DNA from: a virus
Taxonomy: Duplodnaviria > Heunggongvirae > Uroviricota > Caudoviricetes
IMG/VR virus record: IMGVR_UViG_3300042879_005260
Location: 29,514-93,513 of that record
Direction: 5' to 3' (one strand)
Length of the DNA: 64,000 nt
Part shown: positions 2,378 through 42,978 of the stretch, one piece after another
Layout: the number at the start of each line of letters is the position of its first letter
Numbering within the stretch: position 1 is the stretch's first letter
Notes under the pieces: generated by a model
Database searches by the model: none
What the model was told of the DNA's origin: nothing
What the model saw: the letters and a program-made list of their open reading frames with translations, nothing else
Position numbers and translations under genes: made by a program

Positions 2378-3622
2378 TTAATTTATCATAAGAATACGTT
2401 TTGTTATGTTATTACCTATTGTAACTATATAATTACCAGAAACAATGTCACCGACTTCAAAAGTTTGTGTACCAACAAATAAAATATTGTTAAATTTTTT
2501 AACACATTGGCCAGTTATATTGTAAATTTTAATATCACCACTTTTTTCTGTGACATTTTTAAAATTTAAAAAAATAAAATTTCTATCAGTAAAAACATCT
2601 ACAGTTTTATTTGTTTCTGAAAAAAAACCAGATGGATCCGAAATTTCAACAAGTACCGAATCTTCGGAAACACAAATACCATTGCTTGATTTTAATTTAA
2701 CAACATAAGTACCAACTTGGTTATAAACATGTGAAACCGTTGTTGAAATGGTGGAGTCAACCGCTGAACCATCACCAAAATCCCATATCTGACTTACTCC
2801 ATTAATAATTGTTGCATAAAAAATAATCGGGGTATTTATTATTCCAATAATTGGATTTATGTAATTAAATTGTATTTTAACAAAGTTAGTATTTGGGATT
2901 GTAACCCAATCCTCTATTATAAAACCATCTATTTGTAACAACATTTTATAGTTTCCAGATGTCAATAAAAAAAATATCGTATCAGATTCACCACTAAAAT
3001 CGGTAACAGTACCCAAAGTATCGTTTTCTGAGTTAATCAAAGTGATATCAACATCTAAAAAATTACTTAAATATTGAGTGACAATTAAACCACTACCATG
3101 TAAAACAGATTGTACCTGGCAAGGTTCTACGATTCCCGCCACAGTAAGAGGTGGGTGTATATGTATAAAAAACCTATTGTTAAATGTACCTGGAGTTAGT
3201 GAAACAGTAACACTGTTGTTTATTCTTAGGTTTTGTTTTAAACCTGTAATAGAATCTTCAATATAAATCATACTACTGGGTGGAAAACTACTAAAGTCAG
3301 AAACTGTTATTGTGTAATTTGCCAATGTTTGTATATAAAGGCCTAATGGTATTTTAAAATCTTTATTTAATTGACCCATAACGTTGATGGCCAATTTTTC
3401 ATTATCTATTATAGTGTAAATACTTGGGACACCTGGTAATGCCGCTAACATCTTTACACCGTCACTGCTTAGATTGAAACTATCACTTCCTAATGGGTCA
3501 AAATATATTACAGTTTCATCAGCACTATTATTACCTTGTAGTTCAATACACAATAGATTAGGTATTTCATTGGCGAATAAATTGGTTGTTATTAAGCAAA
3601 AAAATAGTAAAAACTTTTTCAT
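2378..3622 (-). CDS. secreted protein with T9SS type A (Por) C-terminal sorting domain
   Basis: signal peptide MKKFLLFFCLITTNLFA; C-terminus IKIYNITGQCV...GNYIVTIGN resembles Por secretion tail. Confidence 0.5.
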   Translation of the reverse strand: MKKFLLFFCLITTNLFANEIPNLLCIELQGNNSADETVIYFDPLGSDSFNLSSDGVKMLAALPGVPSIYTIIDNEKLAINVMGQLNKDFKIPLGLYIQTLANYTITVSDFSSFPPSSMIYIEDSITGLKQNLRINNSVTVSLTPGTFNNRFFIHIHPPLTVAGIVEPCQVQSVLHGSGLIVTQYLSNFLDVDITLINSENDTLGTVTDFSGESDTIFFLLTSGNYKMLLQIDGFIIEDWVTIPNTNFVKIQFNYINPIIGIINTPIIFYATIINGVSQIWDFGDGSAVDSTISTTVSHVYNQVGTYVVKLKSSNGICVSEDSVLVEISDPSGFFSETNKTVDVFTDRNFIFLNFKNVTEKSGDIKIYNITGQCVKKFNNILFVGTQTFEVGDIVSGNYIVTIGNNITKRILMIN

Positions 3623-7732: not shown

Positions 7733-10108
7733 ATGTCAGTAAAAGAAAAAACTAAAATTACTATCCCATCAAAAGCAACTGTTAGAGTTCAGTGGGAGGA
7801 TGAACCACAAAACTATACTAAAGATAAAGTTAAAAGAATTGAACATTATTTTGCCGAAAAATATGGTGTTGAAAAAGTTCAGGTCATCTTTAAACCCAAA
7901 AAAGTTGATTCAGTTAATGGTGAGGTTGAAATGTCAATCACTGATAATGTTATGGACAGTAACTACCAAAGACGTTTATTTAAAGAATGGTTGGACAACA
8001 ACCAAATAAATGTTGATTGGGAACGTCTTTTACGTTTAGACGATAAGGTAAATGACAAGTTAAAACAAATTAGAGATGTTGAATATCGTTATCGTAACTG
8101 GTATATAAAGGAATTGGAATGGGATAATTTTTTATCTTATGGTGATGGTAATAAATTAACTTTTGATAATTTAAAAGGTGTCACCGTTATTACATCAAAT
8201 CCTGCAAATATGGGAGGTAAAACCGTTTTATCGGTGGACTTATTGTTGTTTTTATTTTTCAATGAAACCACCAGAACTAAAGTTGCTGCTCAAATTTTTA
8301 ATAAATTCAGAGATGTTAATCATGTTAGAGTTAAAGGGGTGATTACTATTGATGGCGGTGATTATATTATTGAAAGAAGTTTAAGTCGTTCCAAAAAAAG
8401 AAACGAAGAAGGTTATAATGTAAAAACTGATTTAAATTTTCAAAAAATAATGGCCGATGGTTCTATACAAAATCTAGAAGGTGAACAACGTCGAGAAACT
8501 GATGATTTTATTAGAAAATCTATTGGCAGTGTTGATGATTTCTTATTAACTATTATCGCAACCTCTGATAACCTGGAAGAATTAATCCATACTTTACCGA
8601 CACAAAAAGGTAAATTATTGTCAAAATTTATTGGTCTAGAAGTTATTGAACAAAAAGAAGAAATAGTAAAAGAATTAAAAAGTGCTTGGGCAAAAAATTT
8701 AAAATCTGACCAGTATAATACCGCAGATTTAACTGTTGAAATAGAAAATTTAAAAGAAAAAATTAAAACTTTGGGTTTGGACATTGAAACTTGTAAAACT
8801 CAAAAAGAAAATATTGAACAAGAGATTAAAGAAACTAATGATATAAAAGAAATTTTAATATCTCAGAAAATAACAATTGATAACGACGTTCTTAGATTAC
8901 GAATTACCGACATTGAAAGGGATATTAAAGACATCACAGATAAAGGTAAAAAATCAAAAGAAAAATACGATGTTTTAAAAGCCGAGTTTGATGCTTTAAC
9001 CGAGGTTGAGTACGATTCTCAAACACATAAAGAATGGAAACAACAATTAAGTGATTTAAACACAGCAAAATCACATAGAACCATCAAAAGGGATGGTGTT
9101 GTTAGTTTAATTAAAAATTTGGAAGAAGGAGAATTTTGTTCTTTATGTAAACAACCATTAAAAGATGTTGATCACTCTGAAGAAATTGCCGGAAATAAAT
9201 TGGCTTTGGAAGAATTAAACAAAAATATTGTAGATTTGGAAAAAGAAATTTTAACAGCAAAAACTGAAATTGAAAAATTAGATAAAATAAAAGAAAAAGT
9301 AGATGAATATGATAAAAAATCTTTAATGTTGGATAAACTTAATTTAGAGATTGATAATCTTAGGATGCAGTTGAAAGATAAAAAAGAGTTAAAAAAGAAG
9401 TACGAGGACAACATTGAAAACATTGAAAAAAATAAAGAACTAGATACTAAAATATTGGGTTACTCCTCTAAATTAGAAAGGTTAAACCGTGAAAGAGATG
9501 AGGTTTTAAATAGAAGCCAAAGAAACGCTTCTGAGATATTACGAGCAGAAGATACCATAACCAAAAATGTTTCTATCATTGAAGTTATTAAAACAGAAGA
9601 AGAAGTTAAAGTTATATTTGAAATCTATTCTAGAATGGTTGGTAAGAATGGTATTACAAAATTAATTATGAAAAATGTTATACCTTTATTAAATTCCGAA
9701 TTGGAGCGATTGTTAATTGATTCTGCTAATTTTAAATTATTGGTTGACATTAATGCAAAACAAGAAGTTGATTTTATCCTTCAAAGAGAAAATGAAAACG
9801 GACAGGAAATTTCCTATCTTTTGACTGAAGGTTCTGGGTTTGAAAAAACAATCGGTTCTTTGGCTTTAAGAATGGTATTATCAAGGGTTAGTCTACTACC
9901 AAAACCAAATATTGTAGTTTTAGATGAGGTTTTAGGTAAAGTTTCTAATGATAATTTAGAATTAGTGGGTAATTTCTTTCAAAAATGTTCTGAGATGTTT
10001 GAGAATATATTTTTAATTACTCATAACCCAACGGTCAGGGACTGGGCAACAAATATTATTGAAATCGAAAAAATAAATAATGTTTCTCTTTTGAAAATTA
10101 AAAGATAA
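7733..10108 (+). CDS. sbcC: Rad50/SbcC-family SMC-like ATPase
   Basis: Walker A-like NMGGKTV, long coiled coil, CxxC zinc hook CSLCKQPL, Walker B VVLDEV, H-loop LITHN; start moved to MSVKEK (7733) because track start 7622 overlaps the minus-strand gene. Confidence 0.65.
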   Translation: MSVKEKTKITIPSKATVRVQWEDEPQNYTKDKVKRIEHYFAEKYGVEKVQVIFKPKKVDSVNGEVEMSITDNVMDSNYQRRLFKEWLDNNQINVDWERLLRLDDKVNDKLKQIRDVEYRYRNWYIKELEWDNFLSYGDGNKLTFDNLKGVTVITSNPANMGGKTVLSVDLLLFLFFNETTRTKVAAQIFNKFRDVNHVRVKGVITIDGGDYIIERSLSRSKKRNEEGYNVKTDLNFQKIMADGSIQNLEGEQRRETDDFIRKSIGSVDDFLLTIIATSDNLEELIHTLPTQKGKLLSKFIGLEVIEQKEEIVKELKSAWAKNLKSDQYNTADLTVEIENLKEKIKTLGLDIETCKTQKENIEQEIKETNDIKEILISQKITIDNDVLRLRITDIERDIKDITDKGKKSKEKYDVLKAEFDALTEVEYDSQTHKEWKQQLSDLNTAKSHRTIKRDGVVSLIKNLEEGEFCSLCKQPLKDVDHSEEIAGNKLALEELNKNIVDLEKEILTAKTEIEKLDKIKEKVDEYDKKSLMLDKLNLEIDNLRMQLKDKKELKKKYEDNIENIEKNKELDTKILGYSSKLERLNRERDEVLNRSQRNASEILRAEDTITKNVSIIEVIKTEEEVKVIFEIYSRMVGKNGITKLIMKNVIPLLNSELERLLIDSANFKLLVDINAKQEVDFILQRENENGQEISYLLTEGSGFEKTIGSLALRMVLSRVSLLPKPNIVVLDEVLGKVSNDNLELVGNFFQKCSEMFENIFLITHNPTVRDWATNIIEIEKINNVSLLKIKR

Positions 10109-11335: not shown

Positions 11336-12160
11336 ATGAGTATCACAAACACTAAAAGGTTTATCGACAATTCCGAAGAGAGTATTTCAAAATATCTTAA
11401 AGATGTTAGAAAACTTTCCATGCTTAAACCAGAAGAAGAGGTGGAATTAGCGAAAAAAGCACAAGAAGGTGATTCTAAAGCTTTAGAGATATTGGTAAAT
11501 TCTAACCTAAGATTCGTTATTTCAATCGCAAAACAATACCAAAACCAAGGGTTACCATTGTCTGATTTGATCGCTGAAGGTAATTTGGGATTAATTAAAG
11601 CCGCACAACGGTTTGATCACAATAAAGGTTTTAGATTTATTTCATACGCAGTTTGGTGGATTAAACAATCAATTATCCAATCCTTGAATGATAATGCTAG
11701 AACTGTTCGCCTACCTGTTAACATCACCAATAATATTTCAAAAGTAAAAAAAGAAGTTGCCGCTTTTGAACAGGAAAATGGCAGAAAACCCGATACTAAT
11801 GAAATGGATTTGTCAATACTTAATCAACCTTATTGTATGTCTTTGAATGAAACCATTAACGAAGATGGTGATGAGATGTTGGATGTAATTGAAGACAACA
11901 CTTTTGTAAGCCCAGACCAATCCTTCCAAAGTAATTCCGATTTGTTGAAAAATGAGTTGGAGAACATACTTTCCACCCTTTCAACACGTGAGCGTAATAT
12001 TATTGAACTATATTTTGGTTTAAATGGAAGTGCTTTAACTTTGGAAGAAATCGGTGATGAATATGGTTTGACAAAGGAACGTATTCGCCAAGTAAAAGCA
12101 AAAGCTTTAAGAAAATTAAGATATAAATCTTTAAATTTGTTTAAATATTTAAACGACTAA
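11336..12160 (+). CDS. sigma-70 family RNA polymerase sigma factor
   Basis: region 2 DLIAEGNLGLIKAAQRFD...FISYAVWWIKQ; region 4 LTLEEIGDEYGLTKERIRQVKAKALRKLR. Confidence 0.8.
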   Translation: MSITNTKRFIDNSEESISKYLKDVRKLSMLKPEEEVELAKKAQEGDSKALEILVNSNLRFVISIAKQYQNQGLPLSDLIAEGNLGLIKAAQRFDHNKGFRFISYAVWWIKQSIIQSLNDNARTVRLPVNITNNISKVKKEVAAFEQENGRKPDTNEMDLSILNQPYCMSLNETINEDGDEMLDVIEDNTFVSPDQSFQSNSDLLKNELENILSTLSTRERNIIELYFGLNGSALTLEEIGDEYGLTKERIRQVKAKALRKLRYKSLNLFKYLND

Positions 12161-29446: not shown

Positions 29447-29519
29447 TCTCCTGAAGCATTGCTGGCGATGCACCTGACTTGTAATCAGGATACAATCGGT
29501 TCGATTCCGGTCGGGAGAT
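29447..29519 (+). tRNA. tRNA-Thr(UGU)
   Basis: anticodon arm CCTGA-CTTGTAA-TCAGG; T-loop TTCGATT. Confidence 0.65.
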
Positions 29520-29604: not shown

Positions 29605-29679
29605 GCCTCCATGGCGGAATTGGTAGACGCGTCACTCTTAGAAAGTGAATTTTTGTAGGTTCGAATCCTACTGGGGGCA
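29605..29679 (+). tRNA. tRNA-Leu(UAG), short variable arm
   Basis: Leu-type D-arm GCGGAATTGGTAGACGC; anticodon arm TCACT-CTTAGAA-AGTGA; discriminator A; only 75 nt. Confidence 0.55.
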
Positions 29680-29690
29680 CAAAAAAATAT

Positions 29691-29721
29691 TTGGTAAATT
29701 AAAAAATTTTATCTATATTTG
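29691..29721 (+). promoter_or_regulatory. Bacteroidetes-type promoter inside the tRNA cluster
   Basis: TTG at 29691, 20-nt gap, TATATTTG at 29714-29721, directly upstream of tRNA-Glu. Confidence 0.45.
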
Positions 29722-29733
29722 TACAACAATAAC

Positions 29734-29805
29734 GGTCGGTTCATCTAAGGGTTAGGATACAAGATTTTCATTCTTGTCATAGGGGTCCGAATCCCCTACC
29801 GACTA
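29734..29805 (+). tRNA. tRNA-Glu(UUC)
   Basis: anticodon arm CAAGA-TTTTCAT-TCTTG; T-arm AGGGGTCCGAATCCCCT. Confidence 0.65.
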
Positions 29806-29876
29806 CAAAAGGTTGATTGGGAATTCGGTGAACCGATGAGGTGAGTGAAACTAATCATAAAGTTCTTTGATATTAT

Positions 29877-29964
29877 GGCTGGGTGGCGAAATTTGGTTAT
29901 ACGCGAAAGACTTAAAATCTTTTGGACCGTGAGGTCCGTGCGGGTTCGAGTCCCGCCCCGGCTA
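29877..29964 (+). tRNA. tRNA-Leu(UAA), class II
   Basis: anticodon arm AAAGA-CTTAAAA-TCTTT; long variable arm TGGACCGTGAGGTCCGT; T-arm GCGGGTTCGAGTCCCGC. Confidence 0.7.
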
Positions 29965-29970
29965 CTAAAC

Positions 29971-30047
29971 ATGGTGATAGAGGAGTCAGGTTTATCTCGC
30001 TTGGTTTGGGACCAAGAATTACGTGGGTTCGAATCCCACTCACCATA
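29971..30047 (+). tRNA. tRNA-Pro(UGG)
   Basis: acceptor ATGGTGA/TCACCAT; anticodon arm CTTGG-TTTGGGA-CCAAG. Confidence 0.6.
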
Positions 30048-30055
30048 CTAAACAA

Positions 30056-30128
30056 GCCCTCGTGGCGCAACGGTGAGCGCAGGATGCTTATATCATCAAG
30101 GCTGTTGGTTCGAGTCCAACCGAGGGTA
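30056..30128 (+). tRNA. tRNA-Ile(UAU) candidate
   Basis: anticodon arm GGATG-CTTATAT-CATCA gives anticodon TAT; T-arm GTTGGTTCGAGTCCAAC. Confidence 0.5.
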
Positions 30129-30227
30129 CTAAAAAAAATATTAATCCTAGATTAAAATGAAAATAAAATATAAATATAAACAGTAAGGTTAGTCCACTAC
30201 GAATGGGCTAACCTTATAAAATGTTAA

Positions 30228-32443: not shown

Positions 32444-32520
32444 AGTCAGGTGGCTGAATTGGCGACAGAGGCACTCCATTAGACAATGGGTGGATGCAGG
32501 TTCGAGTCCTGTCCTGACTA
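32444..32520 (+). tRNA. tRNA-like element with aberrant anticodon region
   Basis: acceptor AGTCAGG/CCTGACT and T-arm GCAGGTTCGAGTCCTGT are canonical, but the central region forms an extended CCATT-AGAC-AATGG hairpin instead of a 7-nt anticodon loop. Confidence 0.4.
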
Positions 32521-32540
32521 CTAAAAAATTAAAAAATAAA

Positions 32541-33849: not shown

Positions 33850-34121
33850 GCACCTGTAGCTCAGTTGGATTAGAGCAACTGCCTCAAATCGGGGGTGTTA
33901 TGTCAGAAATGACATAATAGAATTCATCAAATTCGGGGAATCCTGTAAAATGGTAATCCCGAGCGAAGCCTGAAAAGGAACGTGTAGAGACTTGACGGTG
34001 AACACCTAAGTTAGAATCTAATAAGGTGATGGGAAAGTCCAGACCACAAACGTAAATGGTAGTGAAAACTATAGTGGTATGTCTAAGCAGTAGGTCCCAG
34101 GTTCGAATCCTGGCAGGTGTA
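33850..34121 (+). tRNA. tRNA-Arg(UCU) interrupted by a group I intron
   Basis: 5' exon GCACCTGTAGCTCAGTTGGATTAGAGCAACTGCCT (33850-33884); 3' exon TCTAAGCAGTAGGTCCCAGGTTCGAATCCTGGCAGGTGTA (34082-34121). Spliced product closely matches bacterial tRNA-Arg(UCU). Exon ends in U, intron ends in G. Confidence 0.6.
33885..34081 (+). ncRNA. group I intron (trnL-intron-like core), ~197 nt
   Basis: GGTAATCCCGAGCGAAGCC resembles the trnL intron GGGCAATCCTGAGCCAA element; GTGTAGAGACTTGACGG resembles the catalytic-core GCAGAGACTCAATGG; P7 pairing GACUU/AAGUC present. Confidence 0.55.
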
Positions 34122-34341
34122 CAATGAGTAAGAGATACTCAGCAGTCTTTGGTTCAAGACTCATTTAACAATGAACCCGTTCAAACTGGACAGCGGAATG
34201 CCAGTTCTTAGGGTCAAAGGCGCCAATCACAGCTCCTCCTTCGTAGTGTGACTTTTTTAATAGGGGATGCCCTGTAGGTTTCATCAATAGGAAAAAAACC
34301 GGAATGACTACTCACCTGGAATCTCAAGGTGGGGAAATTTA

Positions 34342-34433
34342 GTCGGGTGGCGGAATTGGTAGACGCTGGCTTGAGAAGAATGTAGAGAGAGCCTTAAAGG
34401 ACATTCAATACAGGTTCGAATCCTGTCCTGACA
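34342..34433 (+). tRNA. tRNA-like element (Leu-type D-arm), anticodon arm unresolved
   Basis: GGCGGAATTGGTAGACGC D-arm and AGGTTCGAATCCT T-arm; 3' half nearly identical to the 32444 element; middle forms a GAATGT...ACATTC hairpin with a 17-nt loop. Confidence 0.35.
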
Positions 34434-34455
34434 ACTAAAAAAAATACAAAAATAC

Positions 34456-34486
34456 TTGATAGATTAAAAAATATTTAGTATCTTTG
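34456..34486 (+). promoter_or_regulatory. Bacteroidetes-type promoter P1 in RNA island
   Basis: TTGATA..20 nt..TATCTTTG (34479-34486). Confidence 0.5.
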
Positions 34487-34597
34487 TTATGTTCTTTGGA
34501 AAGGAGGTCTGGTGTGAACCTGAGATATTTGAGATTCCCGATAAGGGAACGATTTTAAGCGACTCAGTAGCACATTCCAAACAACAAAAAAAATATT

Positions 34598-34628
34598 ACA
34601 AAAGTACTTGACAAATTAAAAAATGTTT
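34598..34628 (+). promoter_or_regulatory. Bacteroidetes-type promoter P2 (near-duplicate of P1)
   Basis: TTGACA..20 nt..TATCTTTG (34621-34628); ~50-bp block nearly identical to P1. Confidence 0.5.
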
Positions 34629-34634
34629 AGTATC

Positions 34635-35810
34635 TTTGTAAGACAAAATCGGGAAACCGAATCGTTCTTTGAAAAAATAGATTATCCGTTCAGGTGAAAG
34701 TAAGTTCTTCGGAACTATGATAACTTGATAAAGATATTGGGCCGTGTATAGTCCTTAAATAAACTACGAAAGTAGGATAAAGTGAAATCATCTGTGTTAG
34801 TGGTTTTGCGTCTTGGGAAACCGAGGTCGAGTACACAAGTGGGATATCATCTAACCTTTAGTACTGAGGGCAACGCTTTAGGGAAAATGGTTAGATGACT
34901 AAGCAATGTGGATTGTTTAGTTGAGGTGGGAACACCGATAAGAATAACCCATAGGAATCTTACAAAAAATGTGATTATCCAGTTACATTATTGTGGGTTC
35001 CAATACAAGAGAGGACTTAAAACCGAAAGGTAAGATGGAGAACGAGTGGTGTCGCTACCATCCCTATCAAAGATTTACCAAAATCTTGATATGAAGTAAT
35101 CTTAAAATATGGAAATGGGGACATTTCACTGAGTAGTTTGGTATTCTTTTCTTCAAAAGAGAACGGAGCCTACGACGGACCACTACTTGGACACATCCAC
35201 AACACAAAAACTTTATTATGAAAATTAAAGTCCATTTAATAAATAATTCTAAAGCAAAAGTGTTCGTCAGGTGTTGATGAAAGGTGATTACATAGTCATG
35301 AGTTGTTCATGGCACACTGAGACCGCAAGTTGATGTGTATTCTTGTGAAAAACCTCTAGTCCCGCAAGGATCAACTGGGGAGGCATCCTCGGAGAGAGTT
35401 GAGTAGAAAGAGAGTAGTTGGCACCTCTAGGAGTTGTATACCTAAAAAACCATCACTGAGAAATACTTCTCAAAAGGAAGTGGAAATAAAGGGAAACAAT
35501 AATCCTTTTAAAGGTTCTCACAAAAAACGTGTATTCTCAGCGTAAGTTTTAAAAAATATTTTAAAAGTAAAAAATCAAAACCACTGGTTAAACCCACTGG
35601 GGATTAGGCTCTAATGATGTCCACCCTTTGGTAAGTACTCACAATAGGCCGGCTTCTTTAATGGCTGATACGTGTATAAGTCCGAGCATAAAACACGAAC
35701 TCTACTTACTTTGTGAAATTACTGCCAATTGCAGACTACTATGTGGAATAAATAGATGACCTTCTGAACATAAAGATAAGTGCTCTTGGTTTGATTTTGT
35801 TATAATATAA
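34635..35810 (+). ncRNA. candidate large structured non-coding RNA (~1.2 kb, unknown family)
   Basis: downstream of promoter P2; no ORF above 60 aa on either strand; locally GC-richer than genome; many local hairpins; T-arm-like GGTTCGATTCC near 35855. Confidence 0.3.
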
Positions 35811-36890: not shown

Positions 36891-37006
36891 TTATTTGACA
36901 TATTGGAAATAAATTGGAGAGTTAAGCAGATGCATTGGAGCGTCGACCAGCTTTGAAACCTGGGTCTCGTTAAATTGAGTGGGGGTCGGGTCCTCAGCTC
37001 TCCGCT

Positions 37007-37081
37007 GTGTCTGTAGCTTAGATGGTTTAAAGCGTCTGATTGTGGTTCAGAAGACCGTGGGTTCGAATCCCACCAGACACC
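37007..37081 (+). tRNA. tRNA-His(GUG)
   Basis: acceptor GTGTCTG/CAGACAC; anticodon arm TCTGA-TTGTGGT-TCAGA; T-arm GTGGGTTCGAATCCCAC. Confidence 0.65.
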
Positions 37082-37087
37082 TTATAG

Positions 37088-37159
37088 GGGGGTGTAGCTC
37101 AGAGGCAGAGCAAACTACTGTTAATAGTTAGGCCGAGATTTCAAAATTCTCCATCCCCG
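37088..37159 (+). tRNA. tRNA-Asn(GUU)
   Basis: acceptor GGGGGTG/CATCCCC; anticodon arm AACTA-CTGTTAA-TAGTT; T-loop TTCAAAA. Confidence 0.55.
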
Positions 37160-37165
37160 CAAAAT

Positions 37166-37238
37166 AGTACCGTGTCTGAACGGTTTAGGAACTATCCTGA
37201 TAAGATAGGAAAAGTGGGTTCGACTCCCACCGGTACTA
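37166..37238 (+). tRNA. tRNA-Ile(GAU)
   Basis: acceptor AGTACCG/CGGTACT; anticodon arm CTATC-CTGATAA-GATAG; T-arm GTGGGTTCGACTCCCAC. Confidence 0.65.
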
Positions 37239-37244
37239 CAACAT

Positions 37245-37424: not shown

Positions 37425-37499
37425 AGTCCCATAGCTCAACGGATTTAGAGTACAGTGCTACGAACACTGCGGTTGAAGGTTCAAATCCTTCTGGGACTA
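37425..37499 (+). tRNA. tRNA-Arg(ACG)
   Basis: acceptor AGTCCCA/TGGGACT; anticodon arm CAGTG-CTACGAA-CACTG; T-arm GAAGGTTCAAATCCTTC. Confidence 0.65.
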
Positions 37500-37540
37500 C
37501 AAACATTTACTAAAAAAAGAAAATTTCATATTATTCAAAT

Positions 37541-41378: not shown

Positions 41379-42092
41379 GTGATATTTATTTATAAATCAA
41401 ATTTAATTATGAAAAATATAATTACACTTAATGAAAATCAACTTGAAAAATTGGTTAAAAAAATTATCCAAGAAAATGATGAAAAAGAAAGCAATCGTTA
41501 TATGTTTTTTTCCAATCTAGAACAAATGCATAGGCAAACAGCAATGTTGTTGGAAATGGATGAAGAAACAATAACAAATATATTGGAAAACGGTCATGAT
41601 TGGGCACAAGACCATATCGCAGAAGCAAAAAATAATATGGACCAAGTTTTCGATTTTTTAATGAACGAAACTAAAGGTGGTGACCACGAGTATGATGACT
41701 ATGATGATGACTATGATGATGACTATGATGATAATGAGATGATGGTTATGGAACCGCAACTAGAATCTTATTTAAGAGAAAATTCTGATAGAATTATAGA
41801 TTTTGATGAATTTGGTTTTACTGAATTACTTCCTATAAATGAAGCTAAAGGTAAGGGTGCTTGTGCTAATAGAGGTTTAAGTAAACCATGGTTAACACCT
41901 GGTGGTCCTAAAAAACGTTCTGTTTGTGTTAAAAACGCAAGTGGTAATGTGGTTAAAGTAAACTTTGGTGACCCAAATATGAGAATAAAAAAGTCTAACC
42001 CAAAAAGACGTAAATCTTTTAGAGCTCGTCATAAATGTAGTAACCCAGGTCCTAAATGGAAGGCAAAATATTGGAGTTGCCGCGCGTGGTGA
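41379..42092 (+). CDS. protein with acidic DDYDDDYDDDYDD repeat and basic Cys-containing C-terminal tail
   Basis: codon-level tandem repeat at 41694-41740; tail ...HKCSNPGPKWKAKYWSCRAW. Confidence 0.4.
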   Translation: MIFIYKSNLIMKNIITLNENQLEKLVKKIIQENDEKESNRYMFFSNLEQMHRQTAMLLEMDEETITNILENGHDWAQDHIAEAKNNMDQVFDFLMNETKGGDHEYDDYDDDYDDDYDDNEMMVMEPQLESYLRENSDRIIDFDEFGFTELLPINEAKGKGACANRGLSKPWLTPGGPKKRSVCVKNASGNVVKVNFGDPNMRIKKSNPKRRKSFRARHKCSNPGPKWKAKYWSCRAW

Positions 42093-42978
42093 TCATCAAC
42101 TCAATACCTTTATAAGATTTTAACTTACCTTTAATAACTTTAGTTATATTTGACCTATCTAAATTATTTTCTTTACAAAATTTAGATAGGTCATTTTTTA
42201 ATATTTCCATAATTAAATTTTTGTTTCTATCGTAAAAATTTACCACTTCAAGATTTAAATTATCATATTCTTGACATTTTGTTAAAATTTTATTGTCAGT
42301 TTGTTGAGTATCTAAAAAACAATAGTAACCTTTATTTCTTTTAATATTTTTTATATGACCCCTTAATGTATTAGTAAAAAAATGTATTTTTAAATTATTT
42401 TTTTCACAAAAATCTTCTAAACTTTTAATTCTTAAAATATTGTTTTGGGCATCAACTAAAACCCAATTCTTTGCTTTATTTTTATTTTGTTCTACTAATC
42501 TAGATGTGTTTTTTTGGCTTATTTTATTTTTATGTTCCTGACTAAATTTTTTACCCTTATTAGACATAATGAATTTTTTAACTTTTTCTTGATATTCCAC
42601 ACTATTTAAAGTTTTTTGCCATTTTTCCGATTTTTTTAAACCGTCAGAAATTATTTTAGATAAACATTCAGACACCATTCGCATCCTGTTTTTTTGACCA
42701 CCACCTAAAATATTGTACCCATTGGGTGTTATAGAGCTTAATTGTTTTATCCAGTAAATTTCTTTTTCATCTAATTCTTCTAAAGTTGAAGCCTTATCTA
42801 TTATTTCCCATTCAAAATTTTCTATACCATATTTTTTTATGGCATTTAAAAACGGCCTATTACTTTTATCAAGTTTTGATTCTTTTAAATGACCTTTAAT
42901 TCTTTTATCTAAATTTCTAATTGTTTGACCAATATAGATTTTGTTATTTATTTTATTTTTAACTCTGTAAATTATCAT
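42052..42978 (-). CDS. GIY-YIG homing endonuclease
   Basis: MIIYRVKNKINNKIYIGQT...R..KGH GIY-YIG motif; 308 aa with extended C-terminal region. Confidence 0.7.
   Translation of the reverse strand: MIIYRVKNKINNKIYIGQTIRNLDKRIKGHLKESKLDKSNRPFLNAIKKYGIENFEWEIIDKASTLEELDEKEIYWIKQLSSITPNGYNILGGGQKNRMRMVSECLSKIISDGLKKSEKWQKTLNSVEYQEKVKKFIMSNKGKKFSQEHKNKISQKNTSRLVEQNKNKAKNWVLVDAQNNILRIKSLEDFCEKNNLKIHFFTNTLRGHIKNIKRNKGYYCFLDTQQTDNKILTKCQEYDNLNLEVVNFYDRNKNLIMEILKNDLSKFCKENNLDRSNITKVIKGKLKSYKGIELMITTRGNSNILPSI

Follow-up and report, generated by a model that had tools for sequence, protein, structure and literature searches.

Group I introns of the bacterial IC3 type are found in tRNA genes such as those for Azoarcus tRNA-Ile(CAU), Anabaena and plastid tRNA-Leu(UAA) and Agrobacterium tRNA-Arg(CCU), where they lie in the anticodon loop, are about 200–250 nucleotides (nt) long and lack an open reading frame (ORF). 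Group I introns known from phages (T4 td, nrdB and nrdD, Twort and the SPO1-like DNA polymerase introns) interrupt ORFs instead; these classical protein-gene introns belong to the IA2 type, and a homing endonuclease gene is often present within them. A 2014 review placed all phage group I introns in protein-coding genes, despite the many phage tRNA genes (PMC3984707), and a 2025 paper still describes them as favouring genes of nucleotide and DNA metabolism (PMC12350094). For bacteria, a catalogue lists 333 tRNA group I introns in 4,934 genomes, 81% of them of subgroup IC (Nakagawa et al., 2026; PMC13011429; statements about it refer throughout to the portion used here for comparison). Its insertions fall at nearly every anticodon-loop position, including 33/34 in tRNA-fMet, tRNA-Ile2 and tRNA-Leu, and its tRNA-Arg(UCU) introns, classified as IC3, lie at 34/35 (in Bacillota, Bacteroidota and Campylobacterota) or at 36/37. 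Here we describe a tRNA-Arg(UCU) gene interrupted by a group I intron on a 64,000-nt stretch of viral DNA (IMG/VR record IMGVR_UViG_3300042879_005260, positions 29,514 to 93,513), referred to below as the window, in whose numbering coordinates are given. The locus is very probably a functional tRNA-Arg(UCU) gene in the tRNA array of a genome that is low in GC and resembles those of huge phages; an ORF-less IC3 group I intron of 197 nt, whose splicing is predicted from the sequence, separates U33 from U34.

The gene occupies positions 33850–34121 on the + strand, and the insertion that separates U33 from U34 runs from 33885 to 34081. Its three parts are as follows.

33850–33884, + strand: 5′ exon of tRNA-Arg(UCU), with the acceptor 5′ strand, the D arm (A20 present), the anticodon stem 5′ strand ACUGC, C32 and U33
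33885–34081, + strand: ORF-less group I intron of 197 nt with a predicted IC3-type core (RF00028, 61.3 bits; ARAGORN i(36,197); ORFs of at most 35 amino acids)
34082–34121, + strand: 3′ exon, with U34, C35, U36, A37 and A38, the anticodon stem 3′ strand GCAGU, the variable loop, the T arm, the acceptor 3′ strand and A73

The 5′ exon ends in ...ACUGC-CU, the 3′ exon begins UCUAA-GCAGU and finishes at the discriminator A73 with no encoded CCA, and the intron opens with CAAAUCGGGGG and closes with GGUAUG. Read across both boundaries (marked by slashes), the sequence is GCACCUGUAGCUCAGUUGGAUUAGAGCAACUGCCU / caaaucggggg...gugguaug / UCUAAGCAGUAGGUCCCAGGUUCGAAUCCUGGCAGGUGUA. Splicing would join the exon sequence GCACCTGTAGCTCAGTTGGATTAGAGCAACTGCCT to TCTAAGCAGTAGGTCCCAGG, and the expected ligated-exon junction is ...ACUGCCU/UCUAAGCAGU.... 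Once joined, the exons give a canonical 7/4/5/5 cloverleaf of tRNA-Arg(UCU) with the anticodon loop CU-UCU-AA, and no alternative splice register combines a preceding U, a terminal G and a 7-nt anticodon loop. An earlier note on this DNA had proposed, from the letters and translated ORFs, a tRNA-Arg(UCU) that is canonical when its exons are rejoined, with the anticodon loop CU/UCUAA and an insertion of 197 nt that follows U33 and ends in G. A tRNA finder with intron detection agrees in each respect: ARAGORN with intron search calls tRNA-Arg(tct) at 33850–34122 with i(36,197), leaving the boundaries of the note unchanged, and the last intron nucleotide is G34081. Two further calls in the same mode, Ser(aga) at 29605–30129 and His at 37006–37239, were chimeric and were discarded as false. 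Across the 64-kb window the split gene is called neither by ARAGORN with default settings nor by the Rfam tRNA model. A homing endonuclease ORF was sought in the intron and none was found, the longest ORF that overlaps the element being one of 35 amino acids on the opposite strand; at 197 nt, the intron thus lacks the encoded homing endonuclease by which mobile introns are recognized.

The insertion matches the Rfam model RF00028 (Intron_gpI) at 33875–34062 with 61.3 bits (gathering score 50; E = 4.3e-13 over the window). The lack of an Rfam group I match, part of what the earlier note said would refute its proposal, is not what was found. The two core motifs that it quoted each occur once in the window (33952–33970 and 33982–33998), with 0 expected by chance. 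The Rfam match stops at 34062, and the true 3′ end is defined by helices P9 and P9b. An unaided minimum-free-energy fold of the precursor recovers the acceptor stem, the T arm, P2, P4, P5, P6, P6a, P7/P8 and P9b (z = −3.67). The architecture is that of subgroup IC3, with a single P2, no P2.1 or P5abc extension, a short P5, P6/P6a and a P9 with an extra hairpin, and the P4, P6 and P7 segments are near identical to introns labelled IC3 in Table S5 of PMC13011429. The predicted core is thus of the IC3 type, common to bacterial tRNA-Leu(UAA), Arg, Ile, fMet and Lys introns, an assignment based on similarity to labelled introns. Of the 'trnL-type core' proposed earlier, the shared IC3 core stands; the location typical of tRNA-Leu(UAA), between U34 and A35, does not apply to this intron, which is hosted by tRNA-Arg(UCU) at 33/34. 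A related case that does have that location, the tRNA-Leu(UAA) 34/35 intron of the 735-kb phage LR756501, is among the best GenBank phage matches described below.

A hand-built P1–P9 structure was tested for covariation in two alignments. The first (A1) holds 31 distinct phage tRNA introns from an IMG/VR scan for the J6/7-P7 17-mer GTGTAGAGACTTGACGG, and the second (A2) holds nine distinct tRNA-Arg(UCU) 33/34 introns gathered by the 3′ junction pattern TAGTRGTANGTCTAAGC. The controls were 500 shuffles and versions of the structure slid by 1–3 columns. In A1 the structure is 88.1% paired (75.3% in shuffles), both partners vary in 34 pairs and the covariation score is 0.386 (0.147 in shuffles; 0 of 500 as high), with compensatory changes in P2, P3, P5, P6, P6a, P8, P9 and P9b. 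In A2, 96.6% of cells are paired (86.4% in shuffles), there are 22 compensatory pairs and the score is 0.327 (0.136 in shuffles; again 0 of 500 as high). The slid versions are 27–46% paired, with at most 46% and a covariation score of at most 0.09 in A1. Because the aligned sequences are related, the slid controls are the fairer benchmark, and they are decisive in both A1 and A2.

Helices were assigned from the Rfam alignment, the sequence and homologues, with intron position 1 at 33885, and are listed here with the 3′ splice site.

33880–33897, + strand: P1, exon UGCCU (33880–33884) and intron C1 (33885) with the GGGGGUG guide segment 33892–33897 (G8–G13)
33898–33905/33910–33917 (intron 14–21/26–33), + strand: P2, a hairpin of 8 bp with the GAAA tetraloop L2 at 33906–33909
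33923–33928/33997–34002 (intron 39–44/113–118), + strand: P3, the 3′ strand of which makes the pseudoknot with P7
33933–33938/33957–33962 (intron 49–54/73–78), + strand: P4, 99.5% paired in A1, enclosing P5
33942–33943/33952–33953 (intron 58–59/68–69), + strand: P5, 98.4% paired with GC/CG swaps in A1
33963–33965/33981–33983 (intron 79–81/97–99), + strand: P6
33969–33971/33976–33978 (intron 85–87/92–94), + strand: P6a, with a GAAA loop
33987–33993/34035–34040 (intron 103,105–109/151–156), + strand: P7, 5′ strand G(A)GACUU and 3′ strand AAGUCC
34004–34007/34024–34027 (intron 120–123/140–143), + strand: P8, with a receptor-like internal loop CCUAAG/UAAGG
34011–34014/34018–34021 (intron 127–130/134–137), + strand: P8a
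34043–34047/34074–34078 (intron 159–163/190–194), + strand: P9, closing three nt before the terminal G and enclosing a small variable hairpin and P9b
34059–34062/34069–34072 (intron 175–178/185–188), + strand: P9b, with the loop UGAAAA
34081 (G197), + strand: terminal G (omega-G) at the 3′ splice site, G in 31/31 (A1) and 9/9 (A2) aligned relatives

All helices from P1 to P9 are predicted to be intact, together with the P3/P7 pseudoknot. In P1 the putative 5′ splice site is marked by a wobble pair between U33 (33884) and G33893 (G9), with C-G, C-G, G·U and U·G as its neighbours; a U·G pair is present in 9/9 of the Arg 33/34 relatives and the helix is 96.3% paired. P2 is 100% paired in A2 with compensatory changes in 7 of 8 pairs, and in 8 of 8 pairs in A1. 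P3 is paired in 98.9% (A1) and 100% (A2) of cases, with four and three compensatory pairs, respectively. The L5 region inside P4/P5 reads CCUGUAAAAUGG. The P6 pair G33965-C33981 (G81-C97) is C-G in most relatives; at the corresponding columns of A1 (127/151) there are 23 CG, seven GC and one UA pair and no unpaired case. P7, which is expected to be the guanosine-binding helix, contains the bulged A33988 (A104) and is 100% paired, and its last pair shows a UA to AU swap in 4 of the 9 sequences of A2. P8 is 100% paired with two compensatory pairs (A2), P9 is 98.7% paired with two compensatory pairs (A1), and P9b is 98.4% paired with compensatory changes in all four pairs (A1). No convincing P9.0 could be assigned in the intron sequence. 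Candidate elements for tertiary contacts are recognizable at the sequence level, namely the GAAA loop L2, the P8 internal loop CCUAAG/UAAGG, which resembles an 11-nt or IC3 receptor, and the UGAAAA loop L9; L2–P8 and L9–P5 tetraloop–receptor contacts exist in IC3 introns (PMC11571812).

We infer for self-splicing, tRNA function and spread a mechanism that would be ordinary for IC3 tRNA introns. The precursor would be transcribed together with the neighbouring + strand tRNAs and the intron would fold into P1–P9, with the guide GGGGGUG pairing with UGCCU of the 3′ part of the anticodon stem/loop to form P1, in which U33·G would mark the point of cleavage. P7 would bind an exogenous guanosine, whose 3′-OH would attack the bond after U33884. 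G34081 would next take over the G site, and the freed 3′-OH of U33 would attack the bond before U34082. This would ligate the exons, kept together by a short P10 and by the body of the tRNA, to ...CU/UCUAA... and release a G-tagged linear intron; 5′ and 3′ processing and CCA addition would then yield a mature tRNA that reads AGA and AGG, the dominant Arg codons of the phage. The intron is most likely maintained as a selfish element that is neutral for the phenotype, and its lineage appears to occupy many different tRNA genes of phages, those with U33/U34, as well as some of their capsid genes. The intron presumably cannot home on its own, because it has no endonuclease gene, and occasional transposition is suggested by the occurrence of a single lineage in capsid genes and in eight or more contexts within anticodon loops. 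Recombination, reverse splicing into U-containing sites and trans-acting endonucleases are all possible routes of spread.

Relatives of the intron are widespread in viral DNA. The IMG/VR scan for the P7 17-mer returned at least 120 loci (L005–L124 in our numbering of relatives), and the counts from it refer to the matches listed. ARAGORN in intron mode placed 67 of these loci within tRNA genes, and 48 obey the rule that the 5′ exon ends in U and the intron in G. Most of the 48 are Leu(UAA) introns at 34/35 (33 loci); the others are in Arg(UCU) at 33/34 (five) and 34/35 (three), Lys(UUU) (two), Ser(UGA) (two), UCA (one), Ala(UGC) (one) and Asn(GUU) at 35/36 (one). Calls that break the rule (for example 'Pyl', 'SeC' and Arg-ccg) were excluded from these counts. 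Such calls of odd isotype (Pyl/cta, SeC/tca, Stop/tta) may be intron-bearing suppressor tRNAs or mis-parsed boundaries, and about 55 of the loci were not placed in tRNA genes and presumably lie within protein-coding genes or other RNAs. By the 3′ junction pattern, the Arg(UCU) 33/34 arrangement is present on 14 IMG/VR viral contigs of up to 321 kb (L041, L092, L195, L049, L053, L054, L194, L198, L199, L193, L179, L192, L201 and L183). In 185,579 genomes that represent bacterial and archaeal species, the same pattern had 51 matches, of which 50 were rejected as chance and one is a true Arg 33/34 intron (L174; 76.1 bits), on a 922-bp contig in a Bacteroidia metagenome-assembled genome (MAG); the pattern fixes the 3′ strand of P9, and divergent bacterial versions could escape it. 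The closest introns by global identity are those of L041 and L092 (202 nt) and L049 (205 nt), at about 81%; phage Thr and Asn introns reach 73–75%, phage Leu(UAA) introns 69–77% and the L174 intron 71%. A 23-mer from P2 specific to the window had no match in the IMG/VR collection scanned, so that the same phage is not represented there. A search of IMG/VR by the spliced junction for an intron-less allele gave none with the acceptor stem of the window and showed no presence/absence polymorphism; it gave 12 intron-less phage tRNA-Arg(UCU) genes that share the anticodon arm through to the 5′ strand of the T stem.

Among GenBank phages, the best matches are to the 735-kb huge phage LR756501/LR756503 (79.6% over 162 nt). 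In LR756501.1 (L001), a tRNA-Leu(UAA) gene at about 190286–190526 is split at 34/35 by a 205-nt intron (RF00028, 56.6 bits); the LR756503.1 copy is identical, and the LR756501.1 record is unannotated. This intron resembles that of the window in residing in the anticodon loop of a phage tRNA and in belonging to the same lineage (73% global identity, 79.6% over the core). The cultured Agrobacterium jumbo phage Atu_ph07 (MF403008.1, about 112890–113251, minus strand; L176, 494–855) also has an unannotated split tRNA-Leu(UAA), found with a Leu-intron query; its 278-nt intron, in which P8 is enlarged by a long insertion, reaches 48.9 bits with RF00028, just under the threshold of 50 (E = 4e-11). 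Both introns belong to the lineage of the window intron and differ from it in host tRNA, Leu(UAA), and position, 34/35. In the Atu_ph07 record the 3′ part of the gene is covered by a 'hypothetical protein' coding sequence (CDS), AUZ94936.1, and the word intron is absent from the Atu_ph07 genome paper. The same core splits capsid genes in Pelagibacter phage HTVC120P (L002, MH598807.1, 19433–20607; 75% identity over 155 nt; 48.6 bits, just below 50) and in uvDeep KM23-C739 (L003, KT997847.1, 21756–22832; 88% over 72 nt; 78 bits), each of these genes being annotated as two 'capsid protein' CDSs, and in Pseudoalteromonas phage pYD6-A (L004, JF974296.1; RF00028, 74 bits) it is flanked by two hypothetical CDSs. 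A megablast of window positions 26–40 kb against GenBank phages gave tRNA-sized matches only and no close sequenced relative.

Compared with the bacterial IC3 tRNA introns, the window intron shares the P1–P9 layout, the GAAA-capped P2, the receptor-like P8 loop and a GAAA-type L9, and its P4/P6/J6-7/P7 segments are near identical (GGUAAUCCCGAGC.AAGC...GUGUAGAGACU.GACGG), although J7/3 reads UUGACGG instead of the UAGACGG of several bacterial examples. Global identity to the introns of Table S5 is 50–63%. It differs from the described bacterial examples in the phage nature of its host gene and in its site, Arg-UCU 33/34 as opposed to Leu-UAA 34/35, Arg-CCU 36/37 and Ile-CAU 36/37. Bacterial Arg(UCU) introns interrupt the same isoacceptor, whose anticodon arm is almost identical (AACUGCCUUCUAAGCAGU in one case from Bacteroidota), but form a different sublineage, with identities of 56–61% (34/35) and 51% (36/37); their P4–P6 reads UAUCGGUGAA...GGCAAUACCGAGGAAAC, and some contain homing endonuclease genes (639-nt introns). 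The bacterial tRNA-fMet, tRNA-Ile2 and tRNA-Leu(UAA) introns at 33/34 use the same bond after U33 and have an IC3 core; these are other tRNAs with introns of 252–305 nt, and identity is 51–61% for the fMet and Leu introns compared. A bacterial Arg(UCU) 33/34 case is absent from the portion of Table S5 examined. Because that catalogue includes both, in different tRNAs, neither a tRNA-Arg(UCU) group I intron nor insertion at 33/34 is new.

What is apparently unreported is a phage tRNA as the host context of an IC3 intron. The huge-phage paper does not mention introns, and a full-text literature search, in which subscription journals are poorly covered, found no paper after the 2014 review that reports a phage tRNA gene with a group I intron. 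The earlier note had described such introns as rare both in tRNA-Arg(UCU) and in phage tRNA genes generally. The first half fails, in view of the documented examples in Bacillota, Bacteroidota and Campylobacterota (34/35 and 36/37; PMC13011429). The second holds for the literature and not for the data, in which 48 of the at least 120 P7-motif loci and the 14 Arg(UCU) 33/34 viral contigs speak otherwise: group I introns are common in phage tRNA genes.

The split gene lies within a + strand cluster of more than 20 tRNAs between 29.2 and 37.5 kb, in a window with a G+C content of 29.4%. AGA accounts for 50.5% and AGA plus AGG for 64% of Arg codons in the 55 long ORFs of the window, and the sole other Arg tRNA found there is ACG (37425–37500). 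Because AGA dominates and the other Arg tRNA is ACG, the split gene would supply the decoder of the main Arg codon of the phage. About 1 kb downstream of it is a GOLLD RNA (Rfam, 306 bits at 35129–35543; full-length homology to L049 at 34736–35574), which over 850 nt shares 76.6% identity with the GOLLD RNAs on L049, L053 and L054, contigs with the Arg(UCU) 33/34 intron; on L049-type contigs GOLLD is within about 2 kb of the same intron. Upstream of GOLLD are two near-identical promoter-like repeats (34456–34484 and 34608–34636; TTGAyA-17-TATCTT, each preceded by an A-rich tract), and the region that holds the second (34579–34675) is conserved in L049. PHROG families matched in the window include an SbcC-like nuclease, a phage-type sigma factor and a GIY-YIG homing endonuclease, the last encoded by a free-standing ORF about 8 kb from the intron (42052–42978, − strand; phrog_314, E = 2e-33). 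One window protein has its best matches in 630–640-kb metagenomic phages and Lak megaphages. Another (2378–3622, − strand) has PKD domains and a C-terminal sorting domain (Por_Secre_tail) of the type IX secretion system (T9SS); the latter hints at a Bacteroidota host, consistent with the Bacteroidota-like tRNA-Arg anticodon arm and the Lak/huge-phage protein matches.

Several observations weigh against a working intron in a huge phage. A possible P10, formed by G33892/G33891 (G8–G7) with U34/C35 of the 3′ exon, comprises just 2 bp in the window, compared with 3–4 bp in relatives; P5 has only two Watson–Crick pairs; L9 is the 6-nt loop UGAAAA and not a GNRA tetraloop; and the tRNA carries a G1·U72 pair and no encoded CCA. 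Gathering by exact patterns forces P7 to be invariant in A1 and P9 in A2, and kinship among the aligned sequences makes the shuffle control overstate significance. The attribution of the window to a huge, AT-rich phage is itself deduced from gene content. A short P10 is said, in work of Zaug, McEvoy and Cech from 1993, to be usual in tRNA introns, the exons being aligned by the tRNA body. The short P10, the minimal P5 and the non-GNRA L9 are seen also in the relatives and in some bacterial IC3 introns (PMC13011429, Table S5). With the weak 2-bp P10, the minimal P5 and a gene that default tRNA finders miss, one could suppose a decayed intron that no longer splices, an inactivated tRNA-Arg(UCU) gene and nothing left but resemblance in sequence. 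We consider such decay very unlikely, since every core helix is intact and the U·G pair, the omega-G and the bulged A of P7 are retained. The differences from the relatives of about 81% identity are overwhelmingly compensatory (22 pairs, 96.6% paired), the window has its own G-C for C-G swap in P6, the exons still form a perfect cloverleaf, and the dominant Arg codon is read by no other tRNA in the window.

An intron that splices may also have acquired a regulated or selected role for the phage beyond that of a neutral selfish element. The anticodon nuclease PrrC cuts tRNA-Lys at the 33/34 bond, which is the bond interrupted here, and the intron could conceivably time the supply of tRNA-Arg(UCU), hide the anticodon loop from host anticodon nucleases until late or shield the DNA of the gene from site-specific endonucleases. 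The retention of the same insertion on at least 14 viral contigs, the preference of the lineage for tRNAs that read the A/U-ending codons needed by AT-rich phages (Leu-UAA, Arg-UCU and Lys-UUU) and the free-standing GIY-YIG gene at 42052–42978 would suit co-option of this kind. We nevertheless regard it, and each of these roles, as unlikely. The intron is a minimal one of 197 nt with no ligand-binding or extra domain, the tRNA once spliced would be as exposed as any other, the preference for U33/U34 is explained by the need of group I introns for a U before the splice site, and it is also common for phage tRNA-Arg(UCU) genes with this anticodon arm to have no intron. An origin outside phages, in a low-GC bacterium, a MAG or a plasmid, would make the element another bacterial tRNA group I intron, and L174 in its Bacteroidia MAG and the T9SS protein at 2378–3622 could be taken that way. 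This seems highly improbable given the cluster of more than 20 tRNAs with a GOLLD RNA, the PHROG matches (phage-type sigma factor, SbcC-like protein and homing endonuclease) and the best protein matches in 630–640-kb phages and Lak megaphages; the same junction pattern, moreover, marks 14 viral contigs against one of 185,579 species genomes. A splicing-competent, neutral intron in a functional phage tRNA-Arg(UCU) gene is therefore the reading that we prefer.

Alone, the window intron would be one more IC3 tRNA intron with a textbook mechanism, and its value lies mainly in the wider phage pattern and in a blind spot of annotation. The scans give a picture of environmental phages opposite to the statement in PMC3984707, in which a single lineage supplies dozens of introns within tRNA genes of many isoacceptors and also has copies in capsid genes. 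We suggest, tentatively, that the tRNA arrays of phages, above all of jumbo and huge phages, may harbour a large and so far undescribed stock of ORF-less IC3 introns. These would hop among U33/U34 anticodon loops (Leu-UAA, Arg-UCU, Lys-UUU, Ser-UGA and others), with occasional moves into phage structural genes, and the Arg(UCU) 33/34 intron of the window would belong to a clade that is essentially phage-specific. If this is true, phages become plausible vehicles for the long-puzzling sporadic spread of tRNA introns among bacterial phyla. The pattern seen in the scans makes their part as vectors directly testable by phylogeny. As for annotation, standard tRNA finders miss the gene, so that the phage seems to have no tRNA for its commonest Arg codon; the spurious CDS over the split tRNA-Leu of Atu_ph07 is an equivalent error.

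Two further observations concern RNA elements near split tRNAs. On an IMG/VR contig with a tRNA-Arg(UCU) 34/35 intron (L031), an abiF RNA motif (53.8 bits) lies directly upstream of the intron-bearing gene and a wcaG RNA motif lies about 3 kb from it, abiF and wcaG being at 11857–11893 and 8191–8285. In the window itself, two paralogous tRNA-like elements, at 32444–32521 and 34341–34434, have acceptor (AGUCrGG/CCUGACw) and T-arm sequences in common and aberrant anticodon arms. The first is called 'tRNA-Stop (tta)' by ARAGORN, although its position 33 is A and TAA is the stop codon of 44 of the 55 long ORFs; the second has a tRNA score of 30.3 bits, and a stretch of 38 nt stands where the anticodon arm would be. 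These elements may act as punctuation for processing, or they may be pseudo-tRNAs or tRNAs that carry unusual inserts.

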